Shown here in pieces: positions 11,851 through 59,208 of a stretch of 64,000 nucleotides of DNA. Source of the stretch: Rhizophagus irregularis (taxonomy: Eukaryota); contig NC_089430.1 in NCBI RefSeq assembly GCF_026210795.1, forward strand, positions 4,216,001-4,280,000. The letters run 5' to 3'. The notes beneath the pieces are model-generated. The model was not told where the DNA came from and ran no database searches. It saw nothing but the letters and a program-made list of their open reading frames with translations. Every line of letters begins with the position of its first letter. Position 1 is the stretch's first letter. The translations under genes were made by a program, and so were the position numbers.

Positions 11851-12574
11851 ATTAATGTGTATTATCGTTATGGTACGTTCAAGAATAATAAGTCGAGAAC
11901 TTTTTCGGAATTCTAAGTATTGTAACTTAATTGTACCTTATAATATTATTTTTCTTTTAAATTATTTATGTATCATTTTATCCAATAAAATTTTTATTAT
12001 ATTTTATTTTTATTTTTATTTTTATTATCTTTATTTACCTTATTTTCTAATACCTTTTTTTTTTTAAACAAAAAAAAACAAATAATTTTGAAAAAATCCG
12101 TCAAAACCTTGATTTTTTTTTTTGAATAAAGATTTATAATTCGTTTTCTGCAAAACATTTTATATACAGATAAATATTTTAAAAATTATAAATCTATAAA
12201 AGGACAAGACGGACAAGACGGTGAGTTCATACAATGTCGCGATGATTCGATTGATTCGTCCATGTGCGTGGCGCAGCAAAATTTGATTATATGGTTAGGA
12301 AGTTCCTATCGCCTCGATAAATCAAGGTGGTTATCTGCTATTAAAAATGAAAAAGTTTTCTCCGGTGGTCAGTAATTTTTAGCTAGCAAAAGTCTTAAGT
12401 TCATTTGCCAAATTATTAAAAAAATAAAAAGTTTGACGTTAATTATTTCAAAATTAAGCTCCGGATTTTTAAAAACCTATAACATCAATTACGAAAAAAC
12501 GAAAGACGAAATCATTAATAATAATAATAATAAAAATCACATGATATAGTATTTATAACTATGGATGAGCTTAT

Positions 12575-12800: not shown

Positions 12801-13880
12801 TTAACATATATTAAAGAACCAAATATCAAATTAATCACGAAATTAAATTTAAGCTCTAAGGTGGATAACTTATGATAAAGTTTATTGATATTAAATAAAT
12901 TACAAAATATGTATTTTGATGAATTGATTAATATGTCATTTGAATAACAAAAATCAAAATTGAAACGAATAGAATCATGAGTTTTTAGCCTTACTTTAAA
13001 GTTTAAATAATTTAAATAATTTAAAAATGTTACATTTATGTTATAAGTTCATGATTTATTTGATTTTTTGATAACTAACGTTCTTAAAAAAAAAACGAAT
13101 GTCAAAATCTTTGATATTCTTATAACTTTTATAACTTGAAAAAAAAAATCGTGAAAGCTAAAATTTTATCTATTTCATCTATTAGAATTTTTGTTTTAGT
13201 TTTTATAGAAATTAAAATCTAAGTTTATTAAAAATGTTGTGTTATTCGAAATTTATTACTGTATTATAAGTGGGAATATTTTTATATGAGTAACATTTAA
13301 CAAATTTTATATATTGTACTATAACTATTGCCGTTAATATCTGAAATGATAAATTTGTACGATAGAAAATAAAAATTACTATTTGATAATATTAAAAATT
13401 TATTATAAATATAGAGTCTATTTTATAATAAAAATTCATCAATTATTATAGTAAGAATGAAACTACTTTTCTTACAGAAAGACGTTCACACCACTATTTT
13501 ATGCTACGCTGCTGCTTAACAAAATTAGTTTTGTATTATGTAGTTTATATTTCGAGTTGTGTTATTCTAGATAATTTTTTCCTGAAGTTAATATAATATT
13601 ATAACAAATTGAACTTTCTTATCTTTATCAATAAATTAATAGGTTAATTTTATGACTTGAAATTATACTCTAGCGTCTTTATTAGTATGACAATCACCTG
13701 TCGATTTGTATTACTGCGATGCCAATTTGATTGAAATGATTTCCTTTTTTATTCTCATTGAATATCCAAATTAAATTACGTATTTGGTAACACAATTTTT
13801 TTTTTTTTTATAATCGTGGAATTCTTTTTCACAAATTTGAAACAAACTTACTTACTTATAACAGAATTTATATTATAAAA

Positions 13881-15541
13881 ATGAGCTTTATTAATGAAAA
13901 TCAATTAGTATCTGAATTTGATAAATTAAATATTTCTGATAAAGATTCAAATCCTGTAAAAATTAATCATGAAAATTGTTATGACCCAGATAATAAAAAA
14001 TATTGGTGTAAAGAATGTGTTCCTCATTGCATAATTGAAGGATGGACCAGCAGTGGAAATGATGATATTGATAATCTTATCAAGGATTCGATTTATAATG
14101 CAAGTAAATTTTATAATAGTAAAGATAGTAAATGGTATCCATCATTTCTTGAATGGGTTCCATTTGATAGATTTGAAGATATGAAACAAATAGGTGAAGG
14201 TGGATTTGCAAAAGTGTATTCTGCAACTTGGATTGATGGTACAGCAAAATACATCAGACAAGATGATGGAAATTGGATAAAAAAAGGACCTGAATCCATG
14301 AAAGTTGCCTTGAAAATGCTAAATGGATTACAGAATATGTCAGCTGATTTTTCAAATGAGGTAATTTTCACATGACATGTACTTATTTTAATTTTAAAAA
14401 AATATTAAAATTTATTTAATTTATTTTAATTTGAATAATAATAGCTTAAAACACATTGGAAATTAAATTGCTTACAAGCAGATTCTTTAAAATTTTATGG
14501 AATAACTAAAGATCCAGAAACTGAAGAAATTATGATGATTATGAAATATGCAAAGGAAGGAAATTTGAGAAATGTTCTTTCAAGCAATTTTAACAAAATT
14601 TTATGGGAAGAGAAAATTAGATATTTATACTTTTCAGCAAATGACCTTAAAATTTTACATAAATTAGGATATTTTCATAAAGATTTTCATAGTGGAAATA
14701 TATTAAATATTGGTGGTACTTCTTATATTTCAGATTTTGGATTATCTAGACCATCAAATGAACAGAAATCATCAGATAGTAATAAAATAGTTGGTGTGTT
14801 GCCATATATTGCTCCAGAAGTTTTAAATGGAGAACCATATACATTATCTTCTGACATTTATAGCTTTGGTGTAGTTATGGCTGAATTATCATCTGGAAAA
14901 CCTCCTTTTTATAAAAGAAAACATGATGGTGGCTTAGCATTAGAAATATGTAATGGACTCAGACCAGAATTTGGAAAAGGAACTCCTGAAATTTATAAGA
15001 AATTAGCTCATAGATGTATGAATGCTAATCCAAATCAAAGACCAACAGCCAATGAATTACGCGAAATATTAATTTGTTGGAATAGTTATTTGACGGATTT
15101 AGGTAAAGATGAAAAATTTGGATATAAAAGAGAAGAAGTTAAAGCTGTATTTGAAGAAGCTGATAAAGAAATACCAAATATTTCAACCTCATATGAAAAA
15201 AAACCTGATGCTATTTATACTAGTAGAACATTTACATTTAAAAATTTGTCAAAACCCATTAATTCATCTTTTATTGCTACCACATATCTTAATGAAGAAG
15301 ATAATGAAGGTATTAAATTTTATGTTATTTTGTACAAATTTTATAAAAATAATTAAGATAATGAATAATTTTATTTATTATAATAGGTTGTCAGGATTCT
15401 CAATTAGTTGGCTTAGAGATTTCTAGCTCATTAAAACTAAAAGGTGAGTATAGTAACTTATTACCTTCAGTTTATCTGTTTTTATGATGTTAAAATAAAC
15501 TAATGTTTTTTTAAATAATAGATAATGATGTTGATAACTAA
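13881..15541 (+). CDS. Tyrosine-kinase-like (TKL) protein kinase, copy A, 4 exons
   Basis: Exons 13881-14360, 14445-15309, 15387-15443, 15522-15541. Motifs GEGGFAKVY, VALK, HKDFHSGNIL, DFG, YIAPE, SDIYSFG; N-terminal WCxxC..WTSGNDDID..LEWVPF segment. Confidence 0.92.
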
Positions 15542-18739: not shown

Positions 18740-20180
18740 ATAGTATATTTACTTTGTCATACAGTATTAGATTTTTTTTTTTTTTTTTTGTTGATTGCAA
18801 ATTATGATAACCAAAAAAATGTCCTGATAATTTAATGTATCTTCTTAAGGGAAAGGAAAAATATTTATAAATTTCATAAATGAACAAAATGTTAATCAAG
18901 AATAAAATTTTTTTTATCGTATCATAATATAAATAAAATTTAATAATAATATTTTTTCTCGTAGATTACAAAAAGTATAGAAACCTATCCCCAAAAAAAT
19001 GAATATGACAGTGTGGTTGTTAGTTGGTCATGTTTATGTTCAGACACTTCAAAGTCAATAACTTGTTTGCCGGAATCATTTAGAGAGTAACTAGAAAAAA
19101 ATCCGAACCATTTTTATATGTACTGTCGAAATTGTAATAAAATGTATCGGATCTTTAATGTACGATAAATACTGTATAATTTATGTCATGTTAATGAAGT
19201 TTAATCACAATTTTACTGTCTGATATCTTTATTGTTTAATAGATTTCCTGAAGTACATTATCTTACAAACTACAATCGGGAATATTTTACAAACTTTATG
19301 AATGAAAAATAAAAAGAATTTTTTTTTAAAAAAAAAAGAAAAAGAAAATGTGAAAAAAAAATCGAATTTTAATATTGTTCTTTACAGGTTAATAAAATCA
19401 TCTTTTACCTAAAATATCTAATCTGGTACAATAAATACGAAGTGTGTGCCATTTGGTCATGTGAATTCTCAAGTGAGCGCGAAAAATCTTTTAATGCGAA
19501 TAATTTTAGAAAATTTTAATATGCTCTAGAAAGAGAAAAAGACTTTTTCTAGAAGAATTGTTCGGAATCCCACAATAAATGTCAGATCTCGAGTTTCCAT
19601 TTGCTGAAGCGAAGACCTTACAGAACATACAGAGTTGATGAATTGTGTTTGGTTTGTATTAATTTTATTTTATATTTTATATATTAGTAATTAAAAGTGT
19701 ATTCATTCATTTTTACGAAATGTAATTTACTTTTCGTTAAAGATTACGAAATCGTTCGTCATCTGATCGATAATAATCGATCATTGGAAATGCCGTCACG
19801 AACTACGATGTAAAATGGACATAAATGGAAATGTCAACATGATCCTAAATGTAAATGGTCTGTGGTGTATGTTCCAACGTAGTAGAAACAAAGAGTGTAA
19901 ATGTAAAAAGAAATGTGATTGGAAATGTAAAGATCTATTGACAAATAAAAACAAGTGGCAATGTGAGGATAGATTATGTAGATGTCAACAACAATACAAC
20001 ATAAAATGGTTAAATAAAATGGAGTTGTCAACGTGATCAAAAATGTGAAACTGAACGGAAATGCCAACGGGATTGGTTATGCTTAAATGAATGGAAAAGT
20101 GAAGAATATACTCATGAATTACTCAATGAGTGCCTAAAAAAATCACAAAGTGAACAAGAACCAATTTTTTAAAAAGGGCT
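18740..20180 (+). pseudogene. Pseudogene copy of the tandem 3CxxC gene
   Basis: Colinear with exons 1-6 of 9735-11850; ATG changed to ATA at 18740; TAA at 19088; further stops near 19517 and 19550; frameshifts; truncated at ~20180 before the final domain. Confidence 0.85.
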
Positions 20181-21235: not shown

Positions 21236-22867
21236 TTAGTTATCACTATTGTCTTCTATTATTAAAAATTAATAAAACATTAGTACATTTTATTTTATAT
21301 CATAAAATTAATATCATAAATATATAGTTGATTATATTTACCTTCTAATTTTGATGTATTAGGAACCTCTAAGTCAACTAATTGAGAATCTTGACAACCT
21401 ATCATAATAAATAAAATTAAACATTATCTTAATTATTTTATAAAATTTAAAAAATATAATATAGTAAAATGTACCTTCATTATCTTCTTCATTAAGATAT
21501 GTAGTAGCAATAAAAGATGAATTAATGGGTTTTGACAAATTACTGAATGTAAATGCTCTACTAGTATAAATAGCATCAGGTTTTTTTTCATATGAGGTTG
21601 AAATATTTGGTATTTCTTTATCAGCTTCTTCAAATACAGCTTTAACTTCTTCTCCTTTATATCCATATTTTTCATTATCTTTATAATTATCCCAACAATT
21701 TAATATTTCTTCTAATTCATTGGCTATTGGTCTTTGATTTGGATTAGCATTCATACATCTATGAGCTAATTTCTTATAAATTTCAGGAGTTCCTTTTCCA
21801 AATTCTGGTCTGAGTCCATTACATATTTCTAATGCTAAGCCACCATCATGTTTTCTTTTATAAAAAGGAGGTTTTCCAGATGATAATTCAGTCATAACTA
21901 CACCAAAGCTATAAATGTCAGAAGATAATGTATATGGTTCTCCATTTAAAACTTCTGGAGCAATATATGGCAACACACCAACTATTTTATTACTATCTGA
22001 TGATTTCTGTTCATTTGATGGTCTAGATAATCCAAAATCTGAAATATAAGAATAACCCCTAATATTTAATATATTTCCACTATGAAAATCTTTATGAAAA
22101 TATCCTAATTCATGTAAGTATTTAAGGTCTAGTGCTGAACATTGTAAATAAGTTATTTTCTCATCCCATAAAATTTTATTAAAATTACTTGAAAGAAAAT
22201 TTCTCAAATTTCCATTATTTGCATATTGTATAATTATCATAATTTCTTCAGTTTCTGGATCTTTGGTTATTCCATAAAATTTTAAAGAATTACCTTGTAA
22301 GCAATTTAATTTCCAATGCGTTTTAAGCTATTATTATTTAAATTAAAATAAATTAAATAAATTTTAATGTTTTTTAAAATTAAAATAAGTACATGTTAAA
22401 AAAAATACCTCATTTAAAAGATCAGATGACATATTCTGTGATCCATTTAGCCGTTTCAAAGCAACTTGTATGGGTTCAGGTTCTTCTTTTATCCAATTTC
22501 CGTCATCTTGTTTAATGTATTTTGCCATACCATCGATCCAAGTCGCAGAATACACTTTTGCAAATCCACCTTCACCTATTTGTTTCATATCTTCAAATCT
22601 ATCAAATGGAACCCATTCAAGAAATATTGGATAATCATAGCTTTTCCTTATGTTATAAATCGAATCCTTGATAAAATTATCAATATCATCATTTCCACTG
22701 GTCCATCCTTCAATTATGCAACGAGGAACACATTCTTCACACCAAAATATATAATTATCTGGGTCGTAACAATTTTCATGATTAATTTTTACGGGATTAG
22801 AATCTTTATCAGAAATATTTAATATATCAAATTCAGATACTAATTGATTTTCATTACTAAAGCTCAT
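21236..22867 (-). CDS. TKL protein kinase, copy B, 4 exons (inverted paralog of copy A)
   Basis: Exons 22867-22409, 22327-21475, 21398-21342, 21255-21236; same motifs and intron positions as copy A. Confidence 0.92.
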
Positions 22868-23252
22868 TTTTATAATATAAATTCTGTTAGAAGTAAATAA
22901 GTTTGTTTCAAAGAATTTTACGTTGCAAAAAAAAAAAATTGGCGTTACTTTTATATTTAACTAAATTCGGATATTCAATGAATCAATGAAGATAAAAAGG
23001 AATTATCTTAACCAAAATTGTCATGGTAGGATTGACAATTCAAATATAGATCGTCACACTATTATAAAAGTGTTTTAAATTACAAAAAAATTTTGTTAAT
23101 TTTATTGATAGGTGAAATGTAACTTTTTAAAGCCGAATTAGATTATACTCCTATTTATTAACTTGGTTTACAAATTTGGGAAACCTTCTTCGTTATTAAA
23201 CTAGTAGTAAATGGGGTAACATTCGTCATTTATTATACTTTTAAAAAATATA

Positions 23253-26419: not shown

Positions 26420-27432
26420 ATGAGTCACTCACCATTTAAAACTGTAACCATACAGTAGCAGGAGGTACGGTGATTTGGGTTATGTTATTGCCGAGGCATT
26501 TTTGAATGATGGATCTTATAACGTGAAGATTCTTCGAAAGAAACCAGAAAAAGAAAATGAAAAAGCTAAGCTGCTGGCTTCCAAGGGTGCAGAAATTATA
26601 TATGCGGATTATAGTCAAAACGATGATCTTGTCAAAGCTATTAAAGGAACAGATGTTATCGTCAGTGCTGTAAATTCTGATCCTAAAACTGAGAGCTTTT
26701 ATAATTCTCAAGCTCCACTGTTAGCCGCTGCCAAGGATGCCTCTGTGAAGAGGTTCATCCCATCTGAATTTACTGGAAGATTTAAGTATGATTTTTTTCT
26801 TATTTTTTTTTTGTTGATTTTTCTTTTTATTTAACAAAGATCTGGAGATCATTTTATCATAGACGATAAAGATAAATTTAGAGAAGAATTAGAAAAAAGT
26901 GGACTTGAGTACACATATATCGAAGTCTGAATATTTCAAGAATTCTTTGATTGGTTGGGATTCGATATTAAAAATAAGAAAGCTACTTTCTATGTTGATG
27001 CTAACGAAAAAATTCCCACTACTTCTTTGAATGATATTGGAAAATATACCGTAGAGACACTTAAAATACCAGAGGCTCGTAACGCTCGTATTAATATTGC
27101 TGGCTCATTCCTGTCATTAAATGAGTACCTTGAAATATTTGAAAAGGCTTCTGGTGAGTAAATATTTTATTTAATCGTTATTAAATTATGAATTTTTATA
27201 GTAATTAATTATGATGGTTTATGAAGGTTCAAAATGGGAAGTAATTGTGGATAAAGATGTAAGACATCGATACAAAAACAAGATTGAACCAGTTCCCCAA
27301 TTCTTGGATTATTACAAGGCTGTCCTTTTACAAGAAGGGGAGGTTAATCTAGAATTAGATAATGATAAATTCAGTTTTACTCCTAAACCTGTTACCGAGT
27401 TTATTGAAAAACTTGTAAAACAAGCGTCATAA
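26420..27432 (+). pseudogene. NmrA-like oxidoreductase pseudogene
   Basis: Colinear with 35752-36790; indels and TAG in the GGTGxLG Rossmann motif (~26450-26475); GGA>TGA at 26928. Confidence 0.88.
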
Positions 27433-28342
27433 TTTATTGTAATTAATTTATTGAATGATGTTAATGCATCGTATGAGTTTCGGAATCAATATACTGAATA
27501 AATATACAAGTCTCTCTTATTTGTCATACTAAAATTAACTTCATAAATTTGAAGCGCACTTTTTTCATAAGCCTGTTATTATTATTATTATTTTTTTGAA
27601 TTAAACTTTATGGCTAAAAAATTTTTTTTGTCTCAAACCGGATTTTTTTTTTTTAATTAATAACAGTTTTATTGACGTCCTCGCTTTATAAACTTTTTGT
27701 TAACATTTTTTTTAATTGTCATTGTAAAAATCGTTAATTTTTTTTCTTTGCTCAAGAAAACAGATAGAATCGATTACATGTTACAAATTTTATGCTTAAA
27801 TAATCAAATCCTAAAAGAAAATTGATACTTTCAGGATAAATTTATCCATCATCTGTATCTATTATAAGAGAATGCATAAAACTGACCTATATACAGTATA
27901 AATTTATTATTGCTGATATCATTATAATTTATTACTATTCAAATTTCAATTTCAATTTCTGATTTTTTTTATTTATGACGAAAGATCGTTACAGAAAATA
28001 TAATAAATATGCAAAGAATCAGTAAACTAAATTATTTTTTAAAACTGCCCATCAAACCTACCCTCCAATAATAAAATCTATTACTACTACATCATTTAAG
28101 CAACTAAAATTTAACCAGTATCACGCAATTTAAATAACTATACCTAAATATGAATTTTTTAATAAATTATATTTGTAAAATCAAATATTATATATGATGC
28201 TAAAAATTAGAGTCTGTAATAAAAATGATTTTCCTGATTTATTTTAAATTCAATAAATTACATTTAATTGTGTATTTTCGTTATTTAATAATATGATGGT
28301 TCTAATTCTGTATACAAAAATATACATTTAAAATATTAGACC

Positions 28343-30121
28343 AAGACCCAGAAATATATATACAGGGGCAGCCCTATGAAAAAAGTCTGTGTGATTTTTG
28401 TTGAAAAATCATTCAATTAAATTCACTACGATTTCTGTAAATTTGACCATACAATAATTGTGCTAAAAATTGCAATAAATCACACAATTATTGCATGGTA
28501 ATTCATTCAATAATTATCCTATTTTTGACCTGAATTTATACAATTATTGTGTGATTTCTGAGCCAAATTTTAGGCCATATTTTAGGAATTATAGGTTAAA
28601 TTTTACAGTAATAACAGGCAATTTATAAAGTGAAATTATGAATTTTTATTGACTTAAAATATAAAAAATATACACAATATTTTATCAATAAAATACATAC
28701 TAAATTTGATATAATCATAAATATAAAAATTTGTAAGAAAATAAAATAAAATAAAGTATGTTAATAACATGAAAGTAAATTAGTAGTATCAAAGAAGAAA
28801 GTAAATTATTAGTGTAAGTAAATTATTAGTATTAAATAAATAAAAAAGTATGAAGTTAGTGAAGAAAGCAAATTAGTAGTGTTAAAAAGTAAATTATTAG
28901 TGTTAGTAATAAAAAAGTATGAAGTTAGTGAAGAAAGCAAATTAGTGTGTTAAAAAGTAAATTATTAGTGTTAGTAATAAAAAAAAAGTATGAAGTTAGT
29001 GAAGAAAGCAAGTTAGTAACATTAAAATGTAAAAAGTTAGGAAAATAAAAAGATAAAGAACACAAGTTTTTCTTACCTGATATTTTAAAAGAAAGTTGAA
29101 GAAAAGTTAAAAGGTTAAAAAAACAAACAAAAACATTTCGCGTCATCATATTTATTTTGACGATCAGATCACGTGATCAACATATATAATTTAAGAGTTA
29201 ATTTTTACCGCATAATTCTGGCCAAATTATAATTCCAGTCAGAACTAATTGTGTAACCTAATAAAAAGTTTTTGACTTTTTTTTAGTTACAAGATGATAC
29301 AAAAATTTCACTAATGGGTCCGAAAGATGCCCGTTTATAAGCAAATATGCAGTTGAAATTTGTGTAACCTTACTGCATAAATCACTTTACTTAGGAAAAT
29401 CTATTTGTAATGGTTAAAAGTGGTCTATTTGACCCTAAAAGTGGTCAAATGTAACCATACAGGTAAAATGGAAAGTAGTATAGTATGATTACTCAAAAAT
29501 TGCTTTCTGTATCCTAAATTTAAGTCTATTTTCAAGTTGTACAATAATCACAATTTTTATTGTACAAAAATTGAATGTTTTCTGTATCCTAAATTTAAGT
29601 TGTATAAAGATCACACAAAAATTGAACATTTTCTATATTCTAAATTTAAGTTGTACAAAAATTGCATACTTTTAATATGCTTTGAAAAACTTCATAGCTA
29701 TTTTTATCCAAAAATCTGCAATAATTGTACAATTTCCACACGGACTTGAACAATTATCGTACAAAAATTGGATGATTTTTTTTCATAGGGCAGGGTACAC
29801 AGATGCGTCGCCTGCCGTCGCCTTTGCGTACAAGAATTTTTCGTCCAAAGTTAGATCATCAAGATTGTGTGATCAATTGGGACTTTGATCGAGTACTGAG
29901 TATCGAAATGATCGAGTATCGAGTAGAAGTCTATGAAAATAAATTATAAGGTACTAAATAAGTTAAGTTCCAGCCTATTTTTTATCAAAATTTTTATATG
30001 CATATTTTTGCAGGATTTTCAATATCAGGTGTCAATTATACGTAATACTCATATAAAAAGTCTCCGTAACAGAAAAAATTTTCGCCACCTGACCCTATAT
30101 CAGTATATATTTCTGGGTCCT
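28343..30121. mobile_element. AGGACC-family MITE (~357 bp when empty) carrying a nested CACTA-like insertion
   Basis: TIR A(A/G)GACCCAGAAATATATA / TATATATTTCTGGGTCCT; 8-bp TSD ATTAGACC at 28335-28342 and 30122-30129. Confidence 0.85.
28372..29790. mobile_element. Non-autonomous CACTA/EnSpm-like element (1419 bp), complete
   Basis: TIR CCCTATGAAAAAA / TTTTTTCATAGGG; 3-bp TSD CAG at 28369-28371 and 29791-29793; subterminal repeats; second copy at 1-1197. Confidence 0.88.
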
Positions 30122-35390: not shown

Positions 35391-35751
35391 ATATGCCCAT
35401 ATTAAATTCATAGTAATCAGAGAGTTTAAAAAAATTTTTTTTGCTTTAACTTTTATTATTTTCGTGTAGACAGTAGGTGTTATCATAATGTACCATCGTC
35501 TTAATCAGATTAGCAATTATTAATAATTGAGTGGGAAAAAATTAACGATTTTTTACAATGATAAAAAATGATCATCAAAAAGTATTTAAAGCGAGGACAC
35601 TAAAATTATTACAAATAACTCCATTATTTATTAAAAAGAAAATTTCAAGACATAAAAGATTTCGAACCGAGATTACAATATAATGCATTCAACGAATTTT
35701 ATAATAAAAATTTGAATATTATTTGATTATTTGAAGAACCGATACGTTAAA

Positions 35752-36790
35752 TTATGATGCTTGTTTAACGAGTTCTTCAATGACTTCGGTAACAGGTTTA
35801 GGAGTGAAACTAAATTTATCATTATCGAACTTTCCGAGCTGCCCTTCTTGCACAATGGTAGCCTTGAAATCCTCCAAGAATGAGGGAACTGGATCGATCT
35901 TGTTTTTGAATCGATTTTTTACATCTTTATCAACAACTACTTCCCATTTTGAACCTTCATAAACCATCATTATTAGTTTATACTACAAAAATTTTACATT
36001 CTAATGACTAATGAAAATTAAATAAAATATGTACTCACCGGTAACTTTTTCAAATATTTCAAGATACTCATTTAACGACAAGTTCGCGCCAGCGACATTA
36101 ATATGACCGTTACGAGCCTCTGGTATTTTGAGTGTCTCTACGGTATATTTTCCAATATCATGCAAAGAAGTGGTGGGAAATATTTTGCTACCATCATCAT
36201 AGAAAGTAGCTTTCTTATTTTTAATATCATATCCCAACCAACCAAAGTATTCTTGAAATAATCCAACATAGATGTATGTATACTCAAGTCCACTTTTTTC
36301 TACTTCTTCTCCAAATTTGATTTTATCGTCAATGAGAACATGAGTTCCAGTTCTTTGTTAAAGAAAAATCGTTATGAATTTATCATAAACGTACAAAAAA
36401 AAACAGAAAAAAAAGAAAATAAACATACTTAAACTTTGCGCCATATTCAGACGGGATGAACCTCTTCACAGAGGCATCTTTAGCAGCGGCTAACAGTGGA
36501 GCTTGTGAATCATAAAAACCCGCGCCTTTAGGATCAAAATTTAAAGTGCTGACAACAACATCGGTTCCTTTAAGAGCCTTGACAAGATCATCATGTTGAC
36601 TATAATCCGCATATACAATTTCTGCACCCTTGGAAGCTAACAATTTAGCCTTTTCATTTTCGTTTTCTGGTTTTCTTCGAAGAATTTTCACGTTATAAGA
36701 TCCATCATTCAAGAATGCCTCAGCGATAGCATAACCCAAAGTACCCGTGCCTCCGGCTATAGCTACGGTTTTAAATTGTGAATCACTCAT
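35752..36790 (-). CDS. NmrA-like / isoflavone-reductase-like NAD(P)-binding oxidoreductase (292 aa), 3 exons
   Basis: Exons 36790-36429, 36352-36039, 35954-35752 form an open frame; VAIAGGTGTLG, ADY..L..ALKGTDVVVS, VKRFIPSEYG motifs. Confidence 0.92.
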
Positions 36791-38086
36791 GATATGACGA
36801 ATTTTTTGTTTAAGAGATATTTATCAGTATTTGATAGTTCCTTTTCGTTAAAATCCACCTTATATTAATACTTTTCTGAATCAAATGATTATTAATATAG
36901 CTCAGTAATTTATTAAGATAAACAGGTATTGATATTTAAGTTGCATATTAAGATTAAGTGTATTCTATATTTAGATTCTTTGTTAAATGAATATTCTGCA
37001 TCTCTTAAAATCTTGGCGACCATGAGAAGAATCAATTAGTAAGAAAAAGGGATAATAATTAAACAAAATAATATTAATTATACCAAATAGAGTTAAAAAA
37101 TATCATTATTATCATTATTCGGGAAAGATCGGACCAGGATATTCCGTGAATATGAAACACTTTATCCTTAAACAATATGGTGTCATATTTGTCATATTAT
37201 AATTCGCACCTATGAAACTGTTTAAACTACGAACGTTGTGACGTTATACAAGATAAGAATATTTATTCTTATTCCTAAAAAAAAATACTTAAAATTTTTT
37301 GTTTGAGGAGAAAAAATAAATAAATATTCTCGTTCCAAGAATTTACTATTGTCTTTTGTCTCTTTGAAACCCAATAATAGAAAACAATTTATTTAACGGG
37401 AATAGTGAAATGAGTGAAATGCGTGTTCACTAATAATTATTTCATTATGACAATAAAATTTATTTTTATTTTTCTTCTTTTTATATAAAAATCAAAATTA
37501 TTTCTAAAAATGGTAAAGAATAGCTGCGTGTCACATCATTCACATGCCGATCACAACGAGATTTCTTGGATTTCCTATTTTAAGACTTATTTGTTATATA
37601 AAAAGATTAATAATTCAAGTTTATAGTTTGTTCCGTAATTCACTAACCAAGTCAAAAGCACGAGTACTTCGGAAGGGTCGTCACCAAAAGATTTATTTGC
37701 ACGCAAGTTTTGTGGGCGCGGTTTGTGTCGATCTTCGCCATATAAGGAACAAGTGACATTTAAGTGTCTCCTGATCACGTGCAGCCACGAGTTCAAAAAC
37801 ATTAAGTATCTGAGGGACTTAGTTTTTTTTTAGTGTCAAAAATTTATTTGTCACCCCTGTTACACAAAAAACCGCGCCCACAAAATTGGGGTGCGATTTA
37901 TTTTATTACATGGTAATGGGAACCAGTTTATATCGTTTCATAACCTTTAAATCACGTGAATAAACAAAATTTGATTGGCTACTTCATTTGCTTATAGATA
38001 ATCTTTTTTTTAACTTGTCCTTATTTTTTTAAAAAAAATAACGGATAACGGCTTTTTTGTTCTCACTTCTTACGTTCGGAAACCAG

Positions 38087-49282: not shown

Positions 49283-51097
49283 TTATTTAGTGGAGTGGTA
49301 ATTTTAAAATTTCAGATATATAATATAATTGTATTATTTTAAAATAAAAATTAGTTAAAGTAGTAAAAAATTACGAATAATAATTGTTTTTTACAAAATG
49401 TGATAAATAAATCAATACCCAGTTTATTATGAATCTTTTGCTCTTTACAAATAAATGTAAATATATAATGAAAATTTTCGACTATAATAATTTTTAAGAT
49501 CTTATTACTAATTAGTGAAATTGTTGCCTTCTGAATACTACAATATTAATAATTTATGCTAATATTGCAAATTACAATTTATCGAGTAAATAATTTTGAA
49601 AAAAACGGGTAAAATATGATTTTAACCTTTCCTAAAAAGAAAGTTGACTAGTTTCATTTAATTAAGTTAACCAATTAGTAGCCCGGATGTGATGTTGTAG
49701 TAACCCCTACTACGTGATTACTCCATAACATCTAAAAATTATTTTAACCCTTCCCTATCAGATGTTAATAATCAGGTTATTCTTCATAATAACAACAGTA
49801 ATGATAATCATCATAATTATTTGTATATACACAATAATCATATAGCATCTCTTCTCTAATTTATGAAAATGTAAAATTGTAATGATATAACTTTATAATC
49901 TTAATCCTTATTCTCTTTTTTTATATCTGTTGTTTTCTTTTTTTTACCCTTTTTTTTTATAAAAAAAAAATAATAATAACGTGTAAGACAATTCATTTCA
50001 TTTACAAATGTAAATTTCAATAAATTTCCTTTAGAGAAGAATTAATTGTTTACAAAATAATAATAAAAAAAATTTTTTTATGTTACAAGTATTTTAAGTA
50101 ATTTATTGAAATATATAAAATACTAAACAAAATATAACAAATAAATTATTAAAAAAAATTACATACAATAAAACTTTCATATGCAAGAGAAAATATTTAC
50201 AATAATATTTGGACAGCTTTGTTCTTATAATTTTTTTTTATTTATTTTACTTGTAACCTTTTTTTTTGTAATTGTAGATCTAATCCCATTTTCAGTTTTT
50301 ACTCAATGAAACCAATGGAATAACTCCGATATGATAAAATTCTTTTTTTCTTGTATACTAATTTTATCAGTGAAAGGTATTTGGAATTTATCCGATTAGA
50401 ATTGTTTAAAGTGTTATTTTCATTTAATTATTAATGATCGATCAATAAAAAGTTTATAATTACCGAAAATAATCATCCAGATCATGTGCAATATATATTT
50501 TATATATATACAAAATTGTGTAACCTGGAAACAAATCCGGCTACTGTTTTTTTTATGGGTCGTTATGAATAAAATAAAAAAATCACAAGTCTTATGTATA
50601 TCGATCTATTTGTTATTATTAGAAAAAAAAAAATTTTTTAAAAAAAATTCTGTTAGATTAAAGCGTAAAACATAAAGTATAAAGCTTTTATGCATTTTTT
50701 TATTATAAAATTGATTTCTCAAGTTCACATTGCGTGCGCATTTCCAAAATTTCCAAAAACATGAAAATATGCATGAAGATCGAGAGCAAATAACGAATTG
50801 AGCGAAAAAGTCGGTTAATTTAGAAATGATCAAAAACACTTATACGCTAAAAAAATGATTGTATTAATAATTTGAATGTAATATAGCAGTTTTAATTTAT
50901 TATTGTTCATTAGTGTGATCATATACGGATATATAATAAAGCCTTTTAATATACTTATTTTATTAATAATGTTAGACTTTTTATTTCATCCTTTTACGTG
51001 AGACCATGATTATTCCTATATTAATGAACCCATAAAATAACTTATACATCGCTTTTTTTTTCTTTCCTTTTTTTTAAAAAAAAAAATTTTTTAAAAA

Positions 51098-52616
51098 ATG
51101 GCATCAATTTTTCATCTTAATCTCTCAAAAGACCTTTCCTTAATATTAGATGATGCAGATGATTACAATGCTATTATTCAAGTTGGTGAAAACCAAAATA
51201 TAAAAGAATTTCATACACATTCTGTTATTTTACGTGCTCGTTCTCCCTATTTTAAAGCTGCACTTTCAGCCAATTGGATTACAAAGAAAAATAATATGAT
51301 TATGTTTAGCAAACCAAATATTACTCCAACTGTTTTTTATATGATTTTGAAGTGAGGAATATTTAGTTTTTTTTATAAATTTGACATTAACTTATTCTAA
51401 ATATATAATTATTTTTATTAGGTATGTGTACACTGGTGAACTTGATTTAATTGAACAATCGGGTGAAAATATTCTTAATTTGCTAATTGCATCTGATGAA
51501 TTACTTCTTGATGAAGAATTATTTAAACATGTTCAAGATTATTTAATTGAAAAACAAACCAAATGGGTTCATAAAAATTTCGTTCTTGTTCTTAATACTG
51601 TCTTTGGACTTGATAGTTGCAAGAAATTACAAGGTTATTGTCTTGAATCTATCTGCGAAAATCCATTCCCATTTTTTTCTTCAAAAATCTTTCCTTCAAT
51701 AAATAAGAAAATACTTTTTGACTTGCTTAAAAGAGATGACTTGCAGATTGATGAAATTACTATTTGGGATTGTTTAATTGAATGGGGTATTGAACAAACT
51801 CCTGATTTGGGAAACAATAAAGCTAAGTGGAATAAGAATAATCACAAAGCATTGAAGAAAACTTTAAATCAATTTATTCCTCTCATTCGGTATGTAGGAA
51901 TTTCTCGTGCAGATTTTTTTGATAAAGTCCGTCCTTATAAAACTATTATTCCTTATCACATTTATGAAGAAATCGAAGAATTTTATTATAAAGATTCCTC
52001 ACCTAAAACTACAATTTTGCCACCTAGAATTTGTTCGACATTTGAAATAGGAAAAATTGAATCAAATATCATCAAACCAATACTTGCAAAAATAATAATT
52101 AATTGGATTGATAATAAAGATACTATGTATATTCGCACTAGAAATGATCCATCATATAGGCTTAAACTTATTTATCGTGGTAGCCGTAATGGAATTAGTA
52201 ATGAGTCATTTAGAAAAAAATGTAAAGGTCGAGTAGCAAGTTTAGTTCTAATTAAAGTTAAAGATTCAAATAAAGTTTTTGGTGGATATAGTTCTATTGG
52301 AGTTTGTTCATTAGGAAATGATTTTGATGATGATCTTATTCGTCATGGTTTTCAATTTTACAATTCATCAGATAATTTTATTTTCTCATTTGAAGATAGT
52401 GAAGATACTCAAAATATGAAAATAAGTCGAGTAGTAAGTAATTCTCATGCCATATTGGATCATCATGCTAGTGGATTTAATTTTGGTCGTAGTTCATTGT
52501 GCATGATAAATCAAAGTTTATATCTTACTAATTATATTGGGAATTATGAAAGGAATTTAGATACAAATAAAATTTATACTATTGAAGAAATTGAAACGTA
52601 TTTTGTATATCAATAA
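51098..52616 (+). CDS. BTB/POZ-BACK-TLDc protein, copy 1 (482 aa)
   Basis: Exons 51098-51351 and 51422-52616; HSVILRARSPYF, ILKYVYTG, LLKRDDLQIDE, LIYRGSRNG, VFGGYS, FIFSF motifs. Confidence 0.92.
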
Positions 52617-53476: not shown

Positions 53477-53596
53477 TGAGCACATTCAGTTATTTTACGT
53501 GCTCGTTCTTCCTATTTCAATGGTGTTCTTTCAGCTAATTGGATTACAAAGAAAATAATATCATTCTAATAATCATTTTTGAATGATTTTAAAGTA
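53477..53596 (+). pseudogene. BTB exon-1 fragment
   Basis: RAHSVILRARSSYFNGVLSANWITKK, then a deletion and the remnant donor tgattttaaa|gtaag. Confidence 0.8.
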
Positions 53597-54565
53597 AGAA
53601 TAATTTTAATAATTTTTTTTATTATCTATTTTAATATGAAAATATGTTCAGTTTTTTACACTTGTAAAAACAGTAAAATTGATTTGAATTTAATTTCTTT
53701 TAAAAGTACAAATTCCATTTTAGATTATAAAATTGGTATAGCCTACACTATTATTCAAATCGTACGACGCTTTGTTTCACGAATACTGGGATACTGGAAT
53801 TTGGAATATATATTCCGGATGCGGAAACGAATCAGAATCTTTTATTTTCTTTCTGATATTTGATTTATTTCGTATACGATATTAATAAGCTAATTAATAT
53901 TATTTTTGAATAATTTATCAAACCATGAATCGGAACGGAAATTATGAAGAATATAATCAAGAAAATACTGCATATCAAAATGGATTGATTGATAGTATAT
54001 ATGAGCATCTCAAAAATTACCAAGTAATAAATACATAATTTTTTATTACTTGCTTTATTATATTTTTGTTATAATTGCTAAATAAAACTTATTTGATAAA
54101 AATCTTGCAATTTATTTTTGTAATGTATAGTAATAAGTCATAACTAATCGGATTATATAATCATTGTATTGGTATTGCAAAATTAGCATTAATTTTTCCT
54201 TTGTTCATTAAATTTATTTGTATAAACATAATAATTAAATTTTGATTATTTAAATTACTTAAAGAATTACTATTTTTTTCTTTATAAAAAATTAATTATA
54301 AAATAAAATCAATTTACTATTGAAATTAATAGGAAAATATAAGAAACATTATTAAAGCTTATATGTTGTTGATATTGTTGTTATTATCATTGCTATTTTG
54401 CTATATTATATTATTATTGCTATATTGTGTTAGTTCAGACTTTAAAAAATTAGACATTCCGTATTAAAAAAATTCTTCCAGACAATTTCGGATATAAAAA
54501 ATCGGATAGCAGATTTGGTCATTTTTTAGGTCAAAAGACAAAATATATACATATTCCGGACATAT

Positions 54566-54804
54566 TCAGGGAGCTTTTGTGACTCTCCTTTTCCATATGC
54601 CATGTTGTGGTTCTGCGTCACGTTTATCCTCATTCAATGCTTCTGCATCTGTATTACAATATTATATTAAATATTCCAATTTAATAAGTTAATATAAAAA
54701 AGTGAAAATCTTTAACATAAAATGATCATTTATTACTAACCCGCTAAAATAATAATAAAGACAAAAATCAATAAAAATGATAAAAATGAATATTTTAATT
54801 TCAT
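54566..54804 (-). CDS. Small secreted prepropeptide, copy 1 (48 aa): MKLKYSFLSFLLIFVFIIILADAEALNEDKRDAEPQHGIWKRRVTKAP
   Basis: Exons 54804-54741 and 54648-54566 with a GTTAGT..CAG intron; signal peptide ending AEA; dibasic KR sites flank DAEP-QHGIW; conserved in the paralog. Confidence 0.8.
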
Positions 54805-54976
54805 GGTTGATTTTATGTATGTTACAAAAGTTTTAATTCGTTGTTTGTTTAATTTTATTTTTTTTTAAGAAATTTTCTTCTCTTTCTCAAAGAAAAATTT
54901 TCTATAGTAACATGTATTTCAAATTATTTCATGATTACTTTATTTCATATGATTACAAAGTAAAAGAGGCGTACAA

Positions 54977-55150
54977 GAGTATTTTTGCCACGTTTTTTTA
55001 CATTGTGCCGTGTTGAATATTCAATTGAGGAGCAGAGCAACTTTATACTTTAAATTAATAATGTGTGAATGCGAGATTTTGATGTCAATAATTATTTTGA
55101 GCCAGTGACGTTACGAGAGTATTGTTGCCACGTTTTTTTACATTGCGCCA
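54977..55150. promoter_or_regulatory. Duplicated upstream module containing CACGTT and TG(C/T)GCC
   Basis: gagtatt(t/g)ttgccacgtttttttacattg(c/t)gcc twice (CACGTT at 54989 and 55129); equivalents at 56471 and 56633 upstream of copy 2. Confidence 0.5.
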
Positions 55151-55433
55151 CAATCGGAACGAACAGCGCCACGAAAAATTAATAATGTGGAAATAGATTT
55201 TTATTTTAAAAAAAATAAAAATAAAAGTCCGTGTTCAAAATGATAATATCAAAATCGTGTGAATAATTCAGCATTGCCATATGATATCAAAGTAAATATG
55301 CCTCATTTTTACGTAATGGATTATGTTTTAACTATTTTGTTGAAAAAAGAGATGAAAAGTTTAAATAATCAAAATAATATTATCTGTTATGTTAGGATTT
55401 ATTTGTTATTTAATGAAATACATGAACATATAA

Positions 55434-55467
55434 CTAGGAAACGGAAACCGTTGTAAGTCCGGAGCGA
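55434..55467 (-). mobile_element. Isolated 3' end of the Helentron-like family seen at 31441
   Basis: ctaggaaacggaaaccgttgtaagtccggagcga is nearly identical to 31441-31474. Confidence 0.6.
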
Positions 55468-56055
55468 AAAATTTTTTATTAACTTGTATATATATATAAT
55501 TTATTGTTTATCTAATGTATCAAATCTATTTTTATCTTGTTTAACGTTTAAGTTCCTCTTACATAAATAGTAATAAATTACATAAGTATATCACTACAAT
55601 GTAGAGTGGTTTTATCATTATCTGTCCAATAAAAGGCTTAATCATTGTTGATGAATTAAGAATTAATCAGTAACATTGTTTAAATTAAAGAATTGATTTT
55701 TCTTTATAAAAAAATTAATTGTAAAATAAAATCAATTTATTATTAAAATATTAGGAAAATATATAAGAAAACATTAAAATAATATTATTAAAGTTTATCT
55801 GTTGTTGTTATTATTGCTATTATTGCTATATTGTGTTAGTTCAGACATCAGAACTATATATATTGTCCAGAATTTGTATGAAATTTAGTCTATCTTTCAA
55901 CATTATCCGAACATTGATTGTCCACTTTGAAAAATTGGACATCCTGTATTAAAAAATTCTTCCAGACAATTTCGGACATAAAAATCGGATAGCAGATTTG
56001 GTCATTTTTTAGGTCAAAAGACAAAAGAAATACATATTCCGGAGTCCGGACATAT

Positions 56056-56286
56056 TCAGGGAGCTTTTGTGACTCTCCTTTTCCATAAGCCATGTTGTGG
56101 TTCTGTGTCACGTTTATCCTCATTCAATGCTTCTGCATCTGCATTACAATATTATATTAAAAAATTCCAATTTAGTGAGTTAATATAAGAAAGTGAAAAT
56201 CTTTGACATAAAATGATCATTTATTACTAACCCGCTAAAATAAAAATGAAGACAAAAATCAATAACAATGAGTATTTTAATTTCAT
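56056..56286 (-). CDS. Small secreted prepropeptide, copy 2 (45 aa): MKLKYSLLLIFVFIFILADAEALNEDKRDTEPQHGLWKRRVTKAP
   Basis: Exons 56286-56232 and 56138-56056; same intron and phase as copy 1; the only coding indel is an in-frame 9 nt in the signal peptide. Confidence 0.8.
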
Positions 56287-56749
56287 AGTTGATTTTATGT
56301 ATGTTATATAAATCTTTAATTCGTTGTTTGTTAATTTTTTATTTAAGAGATTTTCTTCTCCTCTTTAAGTGATTATACAAGAAAAATTTTCTAAGTAACA
56401 CGTATTTCAAGTCATTGTTTCATATTATTACAGTGAAGTAAAAAGCGGAGACGTACAAGGGTATTTTTTCCACGTTTTCCTGCATTGCGCCACATTAAAA
56501 TCCACGATTAAAGAGCAGAGCCACTTTGAATTAATAATGTAATGTGAGAATACGAAATTTTGATTTTTGAGCCGCAATCATTTGTTTTATTAATGAGGGC
56601 GAAGTAAAAGAGACGTTATGAGAGTATTTTGCCACGTTTTTTCCCTTGCGCCACAATCAGAACAATCAGACCACTTTTAATTAATATGTGGTAATAAATG
56701 ATTCTTTTTTTTAAAAAAAAAGTAAAAGAAAAAAAAATCGTGTTCAAAA

Positions 56750-56928
56750 ATAATGGTGTAGTTAGCCGAAAAATATTAACCGCAACGACGCATCGGTCGC
56801 ATCGTGATCCGGACCCGGCACAGGCGTAGATCGTCGTGGAATTCCAGGGGATTTTCTGCAATTAAACCGTGTCCGGATGATTGGCAATCAGGAATTCGGC
56901 TCCGTTTTTCGGCTAACTACACCATTAT
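56750..56928. mobile_element. GC-rich MITE (179 bp) upstream of peptide gene copy 2
   Basis: TIR ATAATGGTGTAGTTAGCCGAAAA / TTTTCGGCTAACTACACCATTAT; TSD TGTTCAAAA (9 bp, or 7 bp if the terminal A/T belong to the TIR); empty site in the paralog at ~55232. Confidence 0.9.
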
Positions 56929-57684
56929 TGTTCAAAATGGTAATACCAAAATGTGTGTATAAATTTAGCATTGTTGTATGAATAATCAAATAACATTAAA
57001 TTGAATTTATGAGTACCTTTAATAAAATTTTTAAACTTGTTTTGTTTATGATAAATGATTGAATTTTTTTAGACTTATTGTAAATATTGTACTGATTTTT
57101 TATTTAATTTTAAAAAAGAAATATATAAATTGAATATATAATACAGTATATATAATAAATTACATATCATATCTATCTACCAAAATTTGTTATGATTTGC
57201 GCCAAAGTCGTTGTACTATCTACGGTCCCTAAATACGAATAATTCAAATTGATCTAATACTATTACCAAATATTTTTTCTTTAAAAAAAAAAAACTCTAT
57301 TTCGTATTTCTTATATACTGTATTTTACGATTTTTATGATATTTTAATTTGTTTTATCTTCGCTAATATTACTTTTAATATTCATCTAATTAAGAATTTA
57401 GTTTACCAATTTTAGTTTGATATCCTAATTATACACTAATATTTTTAGAGTTTGAATGATAATCAATTTAGAATATTGATTAGCTACAATAAATCGGTTA
57501 GGTTCCTCATACTATAAAATTAGTTTTTGGGTTGATCATTGTCGGATTCAATTAAAAACATTGCAGATCTCGTTAAAAACAAATAAAGTGCAACGTTACA
57601 AATATTTAAGCCGTAAATCACATGGTTATTTCCATAACATGACATTAATAGCACTTTTTTTTTCTTTTTTTTTATTAAAAAAAA

Positions 57685-59208
57685 ATGGCTTCAAATTTTC
57701 ACTTTCGTCTTTCAGAAGACCTTTCCTTAATATTAGATGATGCAGATGATTACAATGTCATTATTCAAGTTGGTGAAAACCAAAATACAAAGGAATTTCG
57801 TGCACATTCTGTTATTTTACGTGCTCGTTCTCCTTATTTTAAAGTTGCTCTTTCTACTAATTGGATTACAAAAAAGGATAATATGATTATGTTTAACAAA
57901 CCAAATATTACTCCAACTGTTTTTCATATGATTTTGAAGTGAGAATTATTTATTTATTTTTTTTATTTATAAATTTTTGAAATTTAAATTTATTAATTTA
58001 TTCTTAAATATAAATAATTTTTTATTAGATATATTTATACTGGTGAACTTGATTTAACTAAACAATCAGGTGAAAATATTCTTGGTTTGCTAGTTGCATC
58101 TGATGAATTACTTCTTGAAGAATTATTTAAACATGTTCGAGATTATTTAATCGAAAAACAAACCAAATGGGTTGATAAAAATTTTGTTCTTGTTCTTAAT
58201 GCTGTGTTTAGACTTGATAATTGCAAGAAATTACAAGATTATTGTTTTAAATCTATCTGCGAAAATCCTCTACCATTTTTTTCTTCAAAAATCTTTCCTT
58301 CATTAAATAAGGAAATACTTTTTGACTTGCTTGAAAGAGACGACTTACAAATTAAAGAAGTTATCGTTTGGGATTATTTAATTAAATGGGGTATTGAACA
58401 AACTTCTGGTCTTGGGCATGAGAATAGTGATAGAGCGAAATGGAATAATAAGGATTATGAAGAATTGAAGAAAACTTTAAATCAAATTATTCCTCTTATT
58501 CGTTTTACGGAAATTTCTCGTGCAGATTTTTTTGATAAAGTCCGTCCTTATAGAATTATTATTCCTAATCATATTTATGAAGAAATTGAAGAATTTTATT
58601 ATAAGGATGCCTTACCTAAAACTACAATTTTACCACCTAGAACTGGTTATTCATTTGAAATAGGAAAAATTGAGTCAAATATCATCAAACCAATACTCGC
58701 AAAATTAATAGTTAATTGGATTGGAAATGATCAATTGTATAGGTTTAAACTTATTTATCGTGGTAGTCGTGATGGAATTAGTAATAAATCATTCAGAGAA
58801 AAATGTAAAGGTCGAGTAGCAAGTTTAGTTTTAATTAAAGTTAAAGATACAAATAAAGTTTTTGGTGGATATAGTTCTATCGGGTTTTGTTCATTAGGAA
58901 ATGATTTTACTCTTATTAATAGTGATGATTATCATGATTTTCGATTTTACAATTCATCAGATAATTTTATTTTCTCATTTGAAAACAGCGAAGATACTCG
59001 ACATATGAAAATAAGCCGGGTAGTAAATAAATCTCAAGCCATATTGGATATTGATCGTAGTGGATTTAATTTTGGTTGGGGTTCATTATCTATGAATAAT
59101 ATAAATTTACACGCTAATAATCATAGCAATAATTATGAAAATAATTTAAAGACTGATACAGTTTATACTATCAAAGAAATTGAAATCTTTAACATATCCA
59201 ATCAATAA
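57685..59208 (+). CDS. BTB/POZ-BACK-TLDc protein, copy 2 (477 aa)
   Basis: Exons 57685-57938 and 58029-59208; same motifs and intron as copy 1. Confidence 0.92.

Follow-up and report, generated by a model that had tools for sequence, protein, structure and literature searches.

In Rhizophagus irregularis, small secreted precursors that are cut into short peptides have already been described, and the available part of Table S1 of Kamel 2017 (PMC5293756) includes secreted proteins of similar build, namely RiSP193, 260, 357, 480, 618 and 734. RiSP193 contains KR-D(T/A)DAEP-Q.. units ending in Tyr or Trp, the units of RiSP260 start with Gln and end with Trp, and RiSP618 has an exact KRDAEP (PMC5293756, same table). 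According to the sections of Le Marquer 2019 (PMC6339444) available to us, R. irregularis has 12 KEPs, and their near-canonical Ste13 signatures were called surprising and alpha-pheromone-like; the KEP pipeline of that study needs at least three repeats. Outside AM fungi, Pichia used as expression host yielded the Kex2 and Ste13 products pyro-QYKAPSW and QMRPPSW, and in mushrooms peptides with pyroglutamate or a terminal Trp were detected, among them a single-core pyroGlu peptide (Vogt 2022, PMC9769878, available text). One-repeat alpha-pheromone precursors also exist (PMC6339444), and for AM fungi only an ortholog of the STE3 (a-factor-type) receptor is reported in the accessible part of Halary 2013 (PMC3834313).

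The window analysed here is the whole stretch of 64,000 nucleotides of R. irregularis contig NC_089430.1 (positions 4,216,001 to 4,280,000), with a GC content of about 25%. It contains two very small genes on the minus strand, gene A (ATG at 56286, stop ending at 56056, 45 aa) and gene B (ATG at 54804, stop ending at 54566, 48 aa), and their features are collected in Table 1. Both intron-split genes had been proposed in a first-pass annotation made from the letters alone, and their coordinates, introns and motifs were confirmed. In both, the core is preceded by KR and followed by KRR and a short tail, the dibasic pairs being predicted cleavage sites. The N-terminus is hydrophobic (best 9-residue Kyte-Doolittle mean 3.7 and 3.9) and near-identical to the signal peptides predicted in RiSP193, RiSP260 and RiSP480. 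The signal peptide suggested earlier remains a prediction, and its end at A-E-A is less certain, as the cut may lie two residues earlier, after L-A-D-A, as in the published prediction for RiSP193 and RiSP260.

Table 1. Features of genes A and B and of the regions upstream of them (positions in the window).
Feature	Position	Strand	Remark
Upstream region of B	54870..55190	no strand	with internal repeats; homologue of the region at 56433-56644
Upstream region of A	56433..56644	no strand	same multi-copy element as 54870-55190
Gene A 5' leader	56287..56332	-	46 nt, no upstream ATG; ends at adapter-like loose end
Gene A exon 1, coding part	56232..56286	-	predicted signal peptide, 18 codons + 1 base; covered by spliced contig X18 #13
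Gene A phase-1 intron	56139..56231	-	93 nt, GT..AG; skipped exactly in X18
Gene A exon 2, coding part	56056..56138	-	end of signal, pro-segment, KR, spacer, core, KRR, tail, stop
Gene A KR	56115-56110	-	
Gene A spacer DTEP	56109-56098	-	
Gene A predicted core peptide QHGLW	56083..56097	-	release inferred
Gene A 3' UTR	55442..56055	-	~610 nt; contigs X18 #12 and #13, X17 #6, X19 #18, X20 #26
Gene B 5' leader	54805..55014	-	longest contig to 55014, adapter-like end; from 54864 in the contig of X19
Gene B exon 1, coding part	54741..54804	-	predicted signal peptide; 9 nt more than in A, frame kept; residues identical in PKY21215.1
Gene B phase-1 intron	54649..54740	-	92 nt, GT..AG; skipped exactly in X17, X19
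Gene B exon 2, coding part	54566..54648	-	KR, spacer, core, KRR, tail, stop
Gene B KR	54625-54620	-	
Gene B spacer DAEP	54619-54608	-	
Gene B predicted core peptide QHGIW	54593..54607	-	QHGLW in contig of run X19
Gene B 3' UTR	54039..54565	-	~530 nt, as covered by RNA-type contigs

Eight of the 24 listed sequencing runs were aligned as contigs, four RNA-type (X17-X20) and four DNA-type, where the RNA status of X17-X19 is a program guess and X20 is a PolyA RNA-seq metatranscriptome. Exact intron skipping was found in three of the four RNA-type runs. The joint of gene B (54648 to 54741, skipping 92 nt) is present in X17 and X19, i.e., in two studies, and that of gene A (56138 to 56232, skipping 93 nt) in X18, from one study, both with CT..AC on the plus strand; the junction check advised in the first-pass annotation, across 54740-54649 and 56231-56139, thus returned exact skips for both genes. 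X20 has no joint and covers 55800-56074 without differences. Three observations back the RNA status of X17-X19: the GT-AG skips are exact, no contig covers 55084-55404 or 56368-56581, and loose ends that resemble an adapter occur at 55014 and 56332. These 5' ends sit on the minus strand and are presumably the template-switch oligo. In the four DNA-type runs, neither intron joint is among the 15 listed of 42, and the contigs run into the introns. Two other acceptors, a second in-frame one 6 nt downstream and the upstream one of the strain B3 gene model (PKY21215.1), were not used in the contigs examined.

Several details of the transcripts can be added. The ~610 nt of gene A downstream of the stop are a span of contig coverage, which cannot fix the true 3' end. 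The long leader of gene B has four upstream ORFs of 1-3 codons, and none is present in the shorter B leader or in the gene A leader. In run X17, a joint at 55452-55553, where the 3' region of A ends, skips 100 nt (plus-strand GT..AG) with 30 letters on its short side; it may be an antisense intron, a strain deletion or an artefact. Contig 22 of X20 (187 nt) has a depth of 5499, where others in that run have 12-32, and joins 54608-54627 (20 nt, KR-spacer) via 7 other letters to 54833-54855 (23 nt, B leader); it is possibly a chimera from a highly expressed paralog.

The Kex2/Ste13/Kex1 grammar read earlier in the two genes holds in both. Written as [KR]R-(D/E,A/P/T)x2-core-[KR]R, a pattern set down post hoc, it occurs twice in the six frames of the window and in none of 100 third-order Markov simulations. 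A Pfam scan of precursors P0001, P0003 and P0004 at E 0.05 gave no match, MF_alpha included.

Compared with the catalogued precursors, gene A has 18 of the first 30 residues identical to RiSP193 when aligned by eye with one gap, and the distance from the signal to the first KR is the same (PMC5293756, available part). RNA contigs of X17, X18 and X20 align with 3-4 differences to the last ~35 nt of B exon 1 (54741-54774), and the alignment breaks off precisely where the intron begins; a manual reading of the unaligned letters gives the start and second exon of RiSP480 (X18, X20) or of a close paralog (X17). A and B therefore share the signal exon and the position of the phase-1 intron with RiSP480. 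With RiSP193, 260, 480 and 618 as given in the accessible table, they have in common the predicted signal peptide, KR followed by D-A, D-T or E-P dipeptides, and a short core; the cores of RiSP193 and RiSP260 are likewise Gln-initial and aromatic-ended, and the D-T that opens the spacer of gene A also opens the first unit of RiSP193. They differ in having one core instead of at least three, other core sequences and a conserved tail after the second dibasic site. Hence, the idea of a free-standing new system was abandoned: on their sequence, A and B are one-unit members of an R. irregularis family that was catalogued in 2017 and whose likeness to alpha-pheromones was pointed out in 2019. With one core per gene against the at least three repeated units of the KEP criterion, they are not KEPs by definition, though kin to the R. 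irregularis KEPs.

The expectation that surveys requiring repeats would miss such genes was borne out, given the threshold of at least three repeats (PMC6339444). The strings VTKAP, EDKRD, EPQH, WKRR and MKLKY are absent from the available part of the Kamel 2017 Table S1 (PMC5293756), and PKY21215 is absent from the KEP table of Umemura 2020 (PMC7329392) in the part accessible to us; repeat-requiring KEP surveys thus undercount this precursor family. No description of the single-core form, the cores QHG(I/L)W, the QYDLW paralog or the QYNLW unit was found in the literature compared, which left most subscription papers and the 12 KEPs with 14 motifs of Le Marquer outside. The suggestion that this is not a described AM-fungal peptide therefore stands for the genes and cores, but not for the layout, which is known, as is a single-core Kex2-framed precursor, RiCLE1 (PMC12037060, available text); gene B is also annotated, as a hypothetical protein. 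What appears to be new here is the single-core form with the cores QHG(I/L)W and the QYDLW paralog, the precursor layout in R. irregularis being known already.

Genes A and B are the result of a recent tandem duplication of ~1.5 kb that spans the upstream region, the gene and the 3' region. They diverge at 6/138 coding and 16/256 transcribed non-coding positions, and the test for selection between them is not significant (Fisher P = 0.50). Since coding divergence is about equal to non-coding divergence and the duplication is recent, the similarity of A and B is no proof of selection; splice sites, frame and stop are indeed conserved between the copies, as noted at first, but this conservation is weak evidence. 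The sole coding indel is 9 nt long, whereas five of five transcribed non-coding indels are not multiples of 3, and this is the only hint of coding constraint between A and B. One X19 contig carries the spacer and core of A inside the flanks of B, which makes it an allele, a gene conversion or an assembly join; on account of this contig, gene conversion may be homogenising the two copies.

A third paralog with another core is present in three of the four DNA-type runs, where the listed differences read DAEP-QYDLW. Its contig has 20 differences over 56056-56328, 4 of them among those listed; beyond the nearest of these it continues for 31 bases, up to the stop, and, judging from how such contigs end, this fits an identical tail. 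Among A, B and this paralog, four of the five listed exon 2 variable sites fall in the 15-nt core (P = 0.003, or 0.02 on a narrower span), and P rises to 0.05 if four more differences fall outside the core. The clustering of paralog differences in the core is a post hoc lead among the differences listed. In A, B and the third paralog alike, the frame is intact, the two dibasic sites are present, and the core starts with Gln and ends with Trp (for the third, from the listed differences).

Searches for relatives gave few results. A HMMER scan with a 31-residue in-frame stretch of B had 2 matches among 1.84 billion proteins. One is PKY21215.1 (hypothetical protein RhiirB3_434742 of R. irregularis strain B3, 53 aa, a model with another splice acceptor), which agrees with gene B throughout exon 1 and at 30/30 aligned query residues. 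The other, P0004, is an unnamed ENA metagenome protein of 100 aa (E 1.5e-4) with four KR/ER-DA.. units, the last closing QYNLW-KR. Word-indexed protein searches with P0003, P0004 and alignment A2 returned 1, 1 and 3 matches, only the queries and P0005, and the last was rejected as a relative with a core, as it shares the signal and pro region with P0004 but has no comparable core. In metagenome contigs, the strict DNA grammar pattern had 0 loci and a relaxed one 76, none with a Trp-ended core closed by KR and with a lowest GC of 34%, which we took as chance. Two of the metagenome loci (L011 and L061) have KR-DAEP followed by a Trp-Trp stretch with no closing dibasic site, one match each and probably chance. 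The protein atlas had no usable match for the 31-mer and only scores below 0.9 for P0003; a pigment-dispersing-hormone cluster for P0003 (score 0.77) is not evidence. As to conservation elsewhere, which had been named as a check, gene B has its match in strain B3, but the protein searches and metagenome scans turned up no ortholog from a second named species.

With regard to other peptide systems, the ascomycete alpha-pheromone precursors (yeast MF-alpha) have the same order of signal, pro-segment, KR, X-Ala/X-Pro, core and KR, and the Ste13 signature after the Kex2 site is present in A and B as in alpha-type pheromones. Alpha pheromones are of 9-24 residues in the available text of PMC6339444, whereas the A and B cores have 5, and there is no MF_alpha match. 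By sequence, then, A and B fall outside both the KEP repeat definition and the alpha-pheromone size range, yet resemble both in their predicted processing. The Agaricomycete KEP peptides (pyro-QYKAPSW, -AADW and the single-core pyro-QSEPKPTN; PMC9769878, parts available) are alike in Kex2 and Ste13 processing, N-terminal pyroGlu and C-terminal Trp, as predicted for A and B, but they were seen by mass spectrometry, while the A and B products are predicted from the genes; they belong to another phylum and no homology was shown. RiCLE1 is also a small secreted R. irregularis precursor with a single core framed by predicted KEX1/KEX2 sites, although it carries a 12-residue CLE motif that mimics a plant hormone, and A and B have no such motif (PMC12037060, available part). 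A text search of the literature for the cores met them in two reviews on cnidarians only, within Ae-LWamide I. This peptide, pQQHGLWamide, has the string QHGLW and an N-terminal pyroGlu, but amidation is essential in GLWamides (PMC4346854, as available), and in A and B the Trp is directly followed by Lys-Arg with no Gly donor, while the paralog cores lose GLW. Kinship was therefore rejected and the likeness treated as coincidence, since the precursor cannot supply amidation.

Taken over from yeast alpha-factor processing as summarised in the available sections of PMC6339444, the route would be as follows: the precursors would enter the ER via the signal peptide, Kex2 would cut after both dibasic sites, Ste13 would remove D-A and E-P, Kex1 would trim the C-terminal basic residues, the exposed Gln would cyclise, and the peptide would be sensed by a fungal receptor. 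The D-T of gene A is a poorer, non-canonical Ste13 substrate, so A may also yield a longer DTEP-extended form. The calculated MH+ is 640.32 for the pentapeptide with free Gln and 623.29 with pyroGlu, and 1082.49 (DTEP form) and 1052.48 for untrimmed products. That Gln-initial Kex2/Ste13 products can carry pyroglutamate, as had been supposed, has experimental precedent in other fungi (PMC9769878, available text). In appearance, A and B are repeat-family precursors with a single unit, and their paralogs differ mainly in the core, as the members of a small ligand panel would. Our preferred reading, to which we give about an even chance, is that these spliced, transcribed and tandemly duplicated genes encode predicted secreted precursors, each cut to one Gln/pyroGlu-His-Gly-Ile/Leu-Trp, probably as a diffusible fungus-to-fungus signal. 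It is favoured because the product would have its N-terminus protected and its aromatic end fixed while the middle varies, which is the look of such a panel, and because no modifying enzyme was found among the nearby ORFs scanned. The step from peptide to fungal signal is made by analogy alone, and the knockouts of six KEP genes in Coprinopsis, which had no phenotype (PMC9769878, as available), count against a signal.

There is an appreciable minority chance that A and B are instead repeat precursors that have collapsed and now evolve almost neutrally; a duplicated promoter would still drive their transcription, and they may be processed, but to a pentapeptide without a selected role. The recent duplication with coding divergence equal to non-coding, the multi-copy upstream element, the gene-rich and duplication-rich neighbourhood, the 0-2 reads per library of the closest catalogued relatives RiSP193 and RiSP260, and the protein searches that found no named cross-species ortholog would all agree with it. 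Frame, dibasic sites, first Gln and last Trp are nevertheless kept in three paralogs, the one coding indel of 9 nt contrasts with the five of five non-coding indels that are not multiples of 3, and a similar core, QYNLW, closes the multi-unit precursor P0004 from another source. The presence of gene A sequence in the PolyA metatranscriptome X20 would suit a peptide directed to the plant, but we know of no plant peptide hormone with this core, and the text search for the cores gave the cnidarian reviews only. Such a signal, set free where fungus and root meet and perceived by a receptor of the plant, like RiCLE1 (cf. PMC12037060, PMC13596872, parts available), is in our opinion rather unlikely, even though RiCLE1 is a Kex1/Kex2-framed single core that acts through a plant pathway (PMC12037060) and the relatives RiSP618, 734 and 480 are up-regulated in roots (PMC5293756, accessible part).

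A true mating pheromone is unlikely, and we hold it quite improbable that A and B serve AM fungi as pheromones for mating or for telling self from non-self, in which the core of each paralog or allele would encode identity. The alpha-factor grammar points that way, cores differ between paralogs and between strains, and no AM-fungal peptide pheromone gene had been found, for which the authors blamed short length (PMC3834313, available text). However, the only receptor reported there is STE3 (a-factor-type), alpha pheromones at 9-24 residues are longer than these cores (PMC6339444), basidiomycete KEPs that are not pheromones carry this Ste13 grammar too (PMC6339444, PMC9769878, as available), and no link to a mating-type locus was seen in the window, where BTB-BACK-TLDc genes form the flanks. 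A co-inoculation study reported no up-regulated pheromone genes, but none had been defined (PMC7490403, available part). In its boldest form, a long shot, A, B and their paralogs would be the missing AM-fungal peptide pheromones, a pyroGlu-(His/Tyr)-x-(Ile/Leu)-Trp panel of identity cores governing hyphal fusion or cryptic mating via a non-Ste2-class receptor. It is very improbable that the cores are the substrate of a modified or cyclic peptide (a dikaritin-type RiPP), or a defensive or structural peptide. They do contain aromatic residues, and for the Tyr-rich KEPs of R. irregularis cyclisation was considered by Le Marquer (PMC6339444, available sections), but no DUF3328 or other modifying enzyme was found among 12 larger ORFs in the window and, at 44-64 kb, among 50 of 102 ORFs (45+ aa), where intron-split genes could be missed, and KEP type P-4 of Umemura, which includes Rhizophagus, has no DUF3328 neighbours by our reading of the table row (PMC7329392, accessible part).

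For the preferred fungus-to-fungus signal, the mutual recognition of AM-fungal hyphae is still an open question, and AM fungi cannot be stably transformed (PMC6339444, available text). A single-core precursor defines for each gene exactly one product of five residues, and the natural variants can serve as specificity controls, so that synthetic peptides and targeted mass spectrometry would suffice for a test, without genetics; products this short are cheap to make and test. If the peptides prove inert, what remains is a corrected annotation and an extended family.

Genes A and B lie between two tandem BTB-BACK-TLDc paralogs (51093-52616 and 57680-59208), and a Pfam scan of the window also found tyrosine-kinase-like kinases, an F-box-like gene and NmrA. 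A 75-nt remnant of a third BTB exon is present at 53481-53555, between the two BTB-BACK-TLDc genes. The upstream element of A and B is matched by many other genome loci, with a summed contig depth of 10-20 times the single-copy level in DNA-type runs, and it may be a promoter module common to a larger family of small secreted genes. The upstream region contains an internally repeated ~27-nt element (3 window matches within 5 mismatches). A bacterial promoter scan of the locus was at chance level and is irrelevant to this host. Two short high-copy repeats at 55428-55475 and 56820-56930 reach a summed depth of ~100 times single copy in the DNA runs, and the former is also found near the ends of many RNA contigs. 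Inverted duplicate pairs are formed by a tyrosine-kinase-like kinase gene (13791-15461 and 21324-22960, ~92-94% alike) and by an NmrA-like gene (26448-27441 and 35743-36820, ~85% alike), while 1-1108 and 28573-29701 are a direct duplication, 97-99% identical, with an internal ~70-nt tandem unit. Finally, a duplicated Cys/His/Trp-rich repeat gene with W-x-C-x-H units (10395-12067 and 19514-20049) adjoins a 3CxxC zinc-ribbon ORF.
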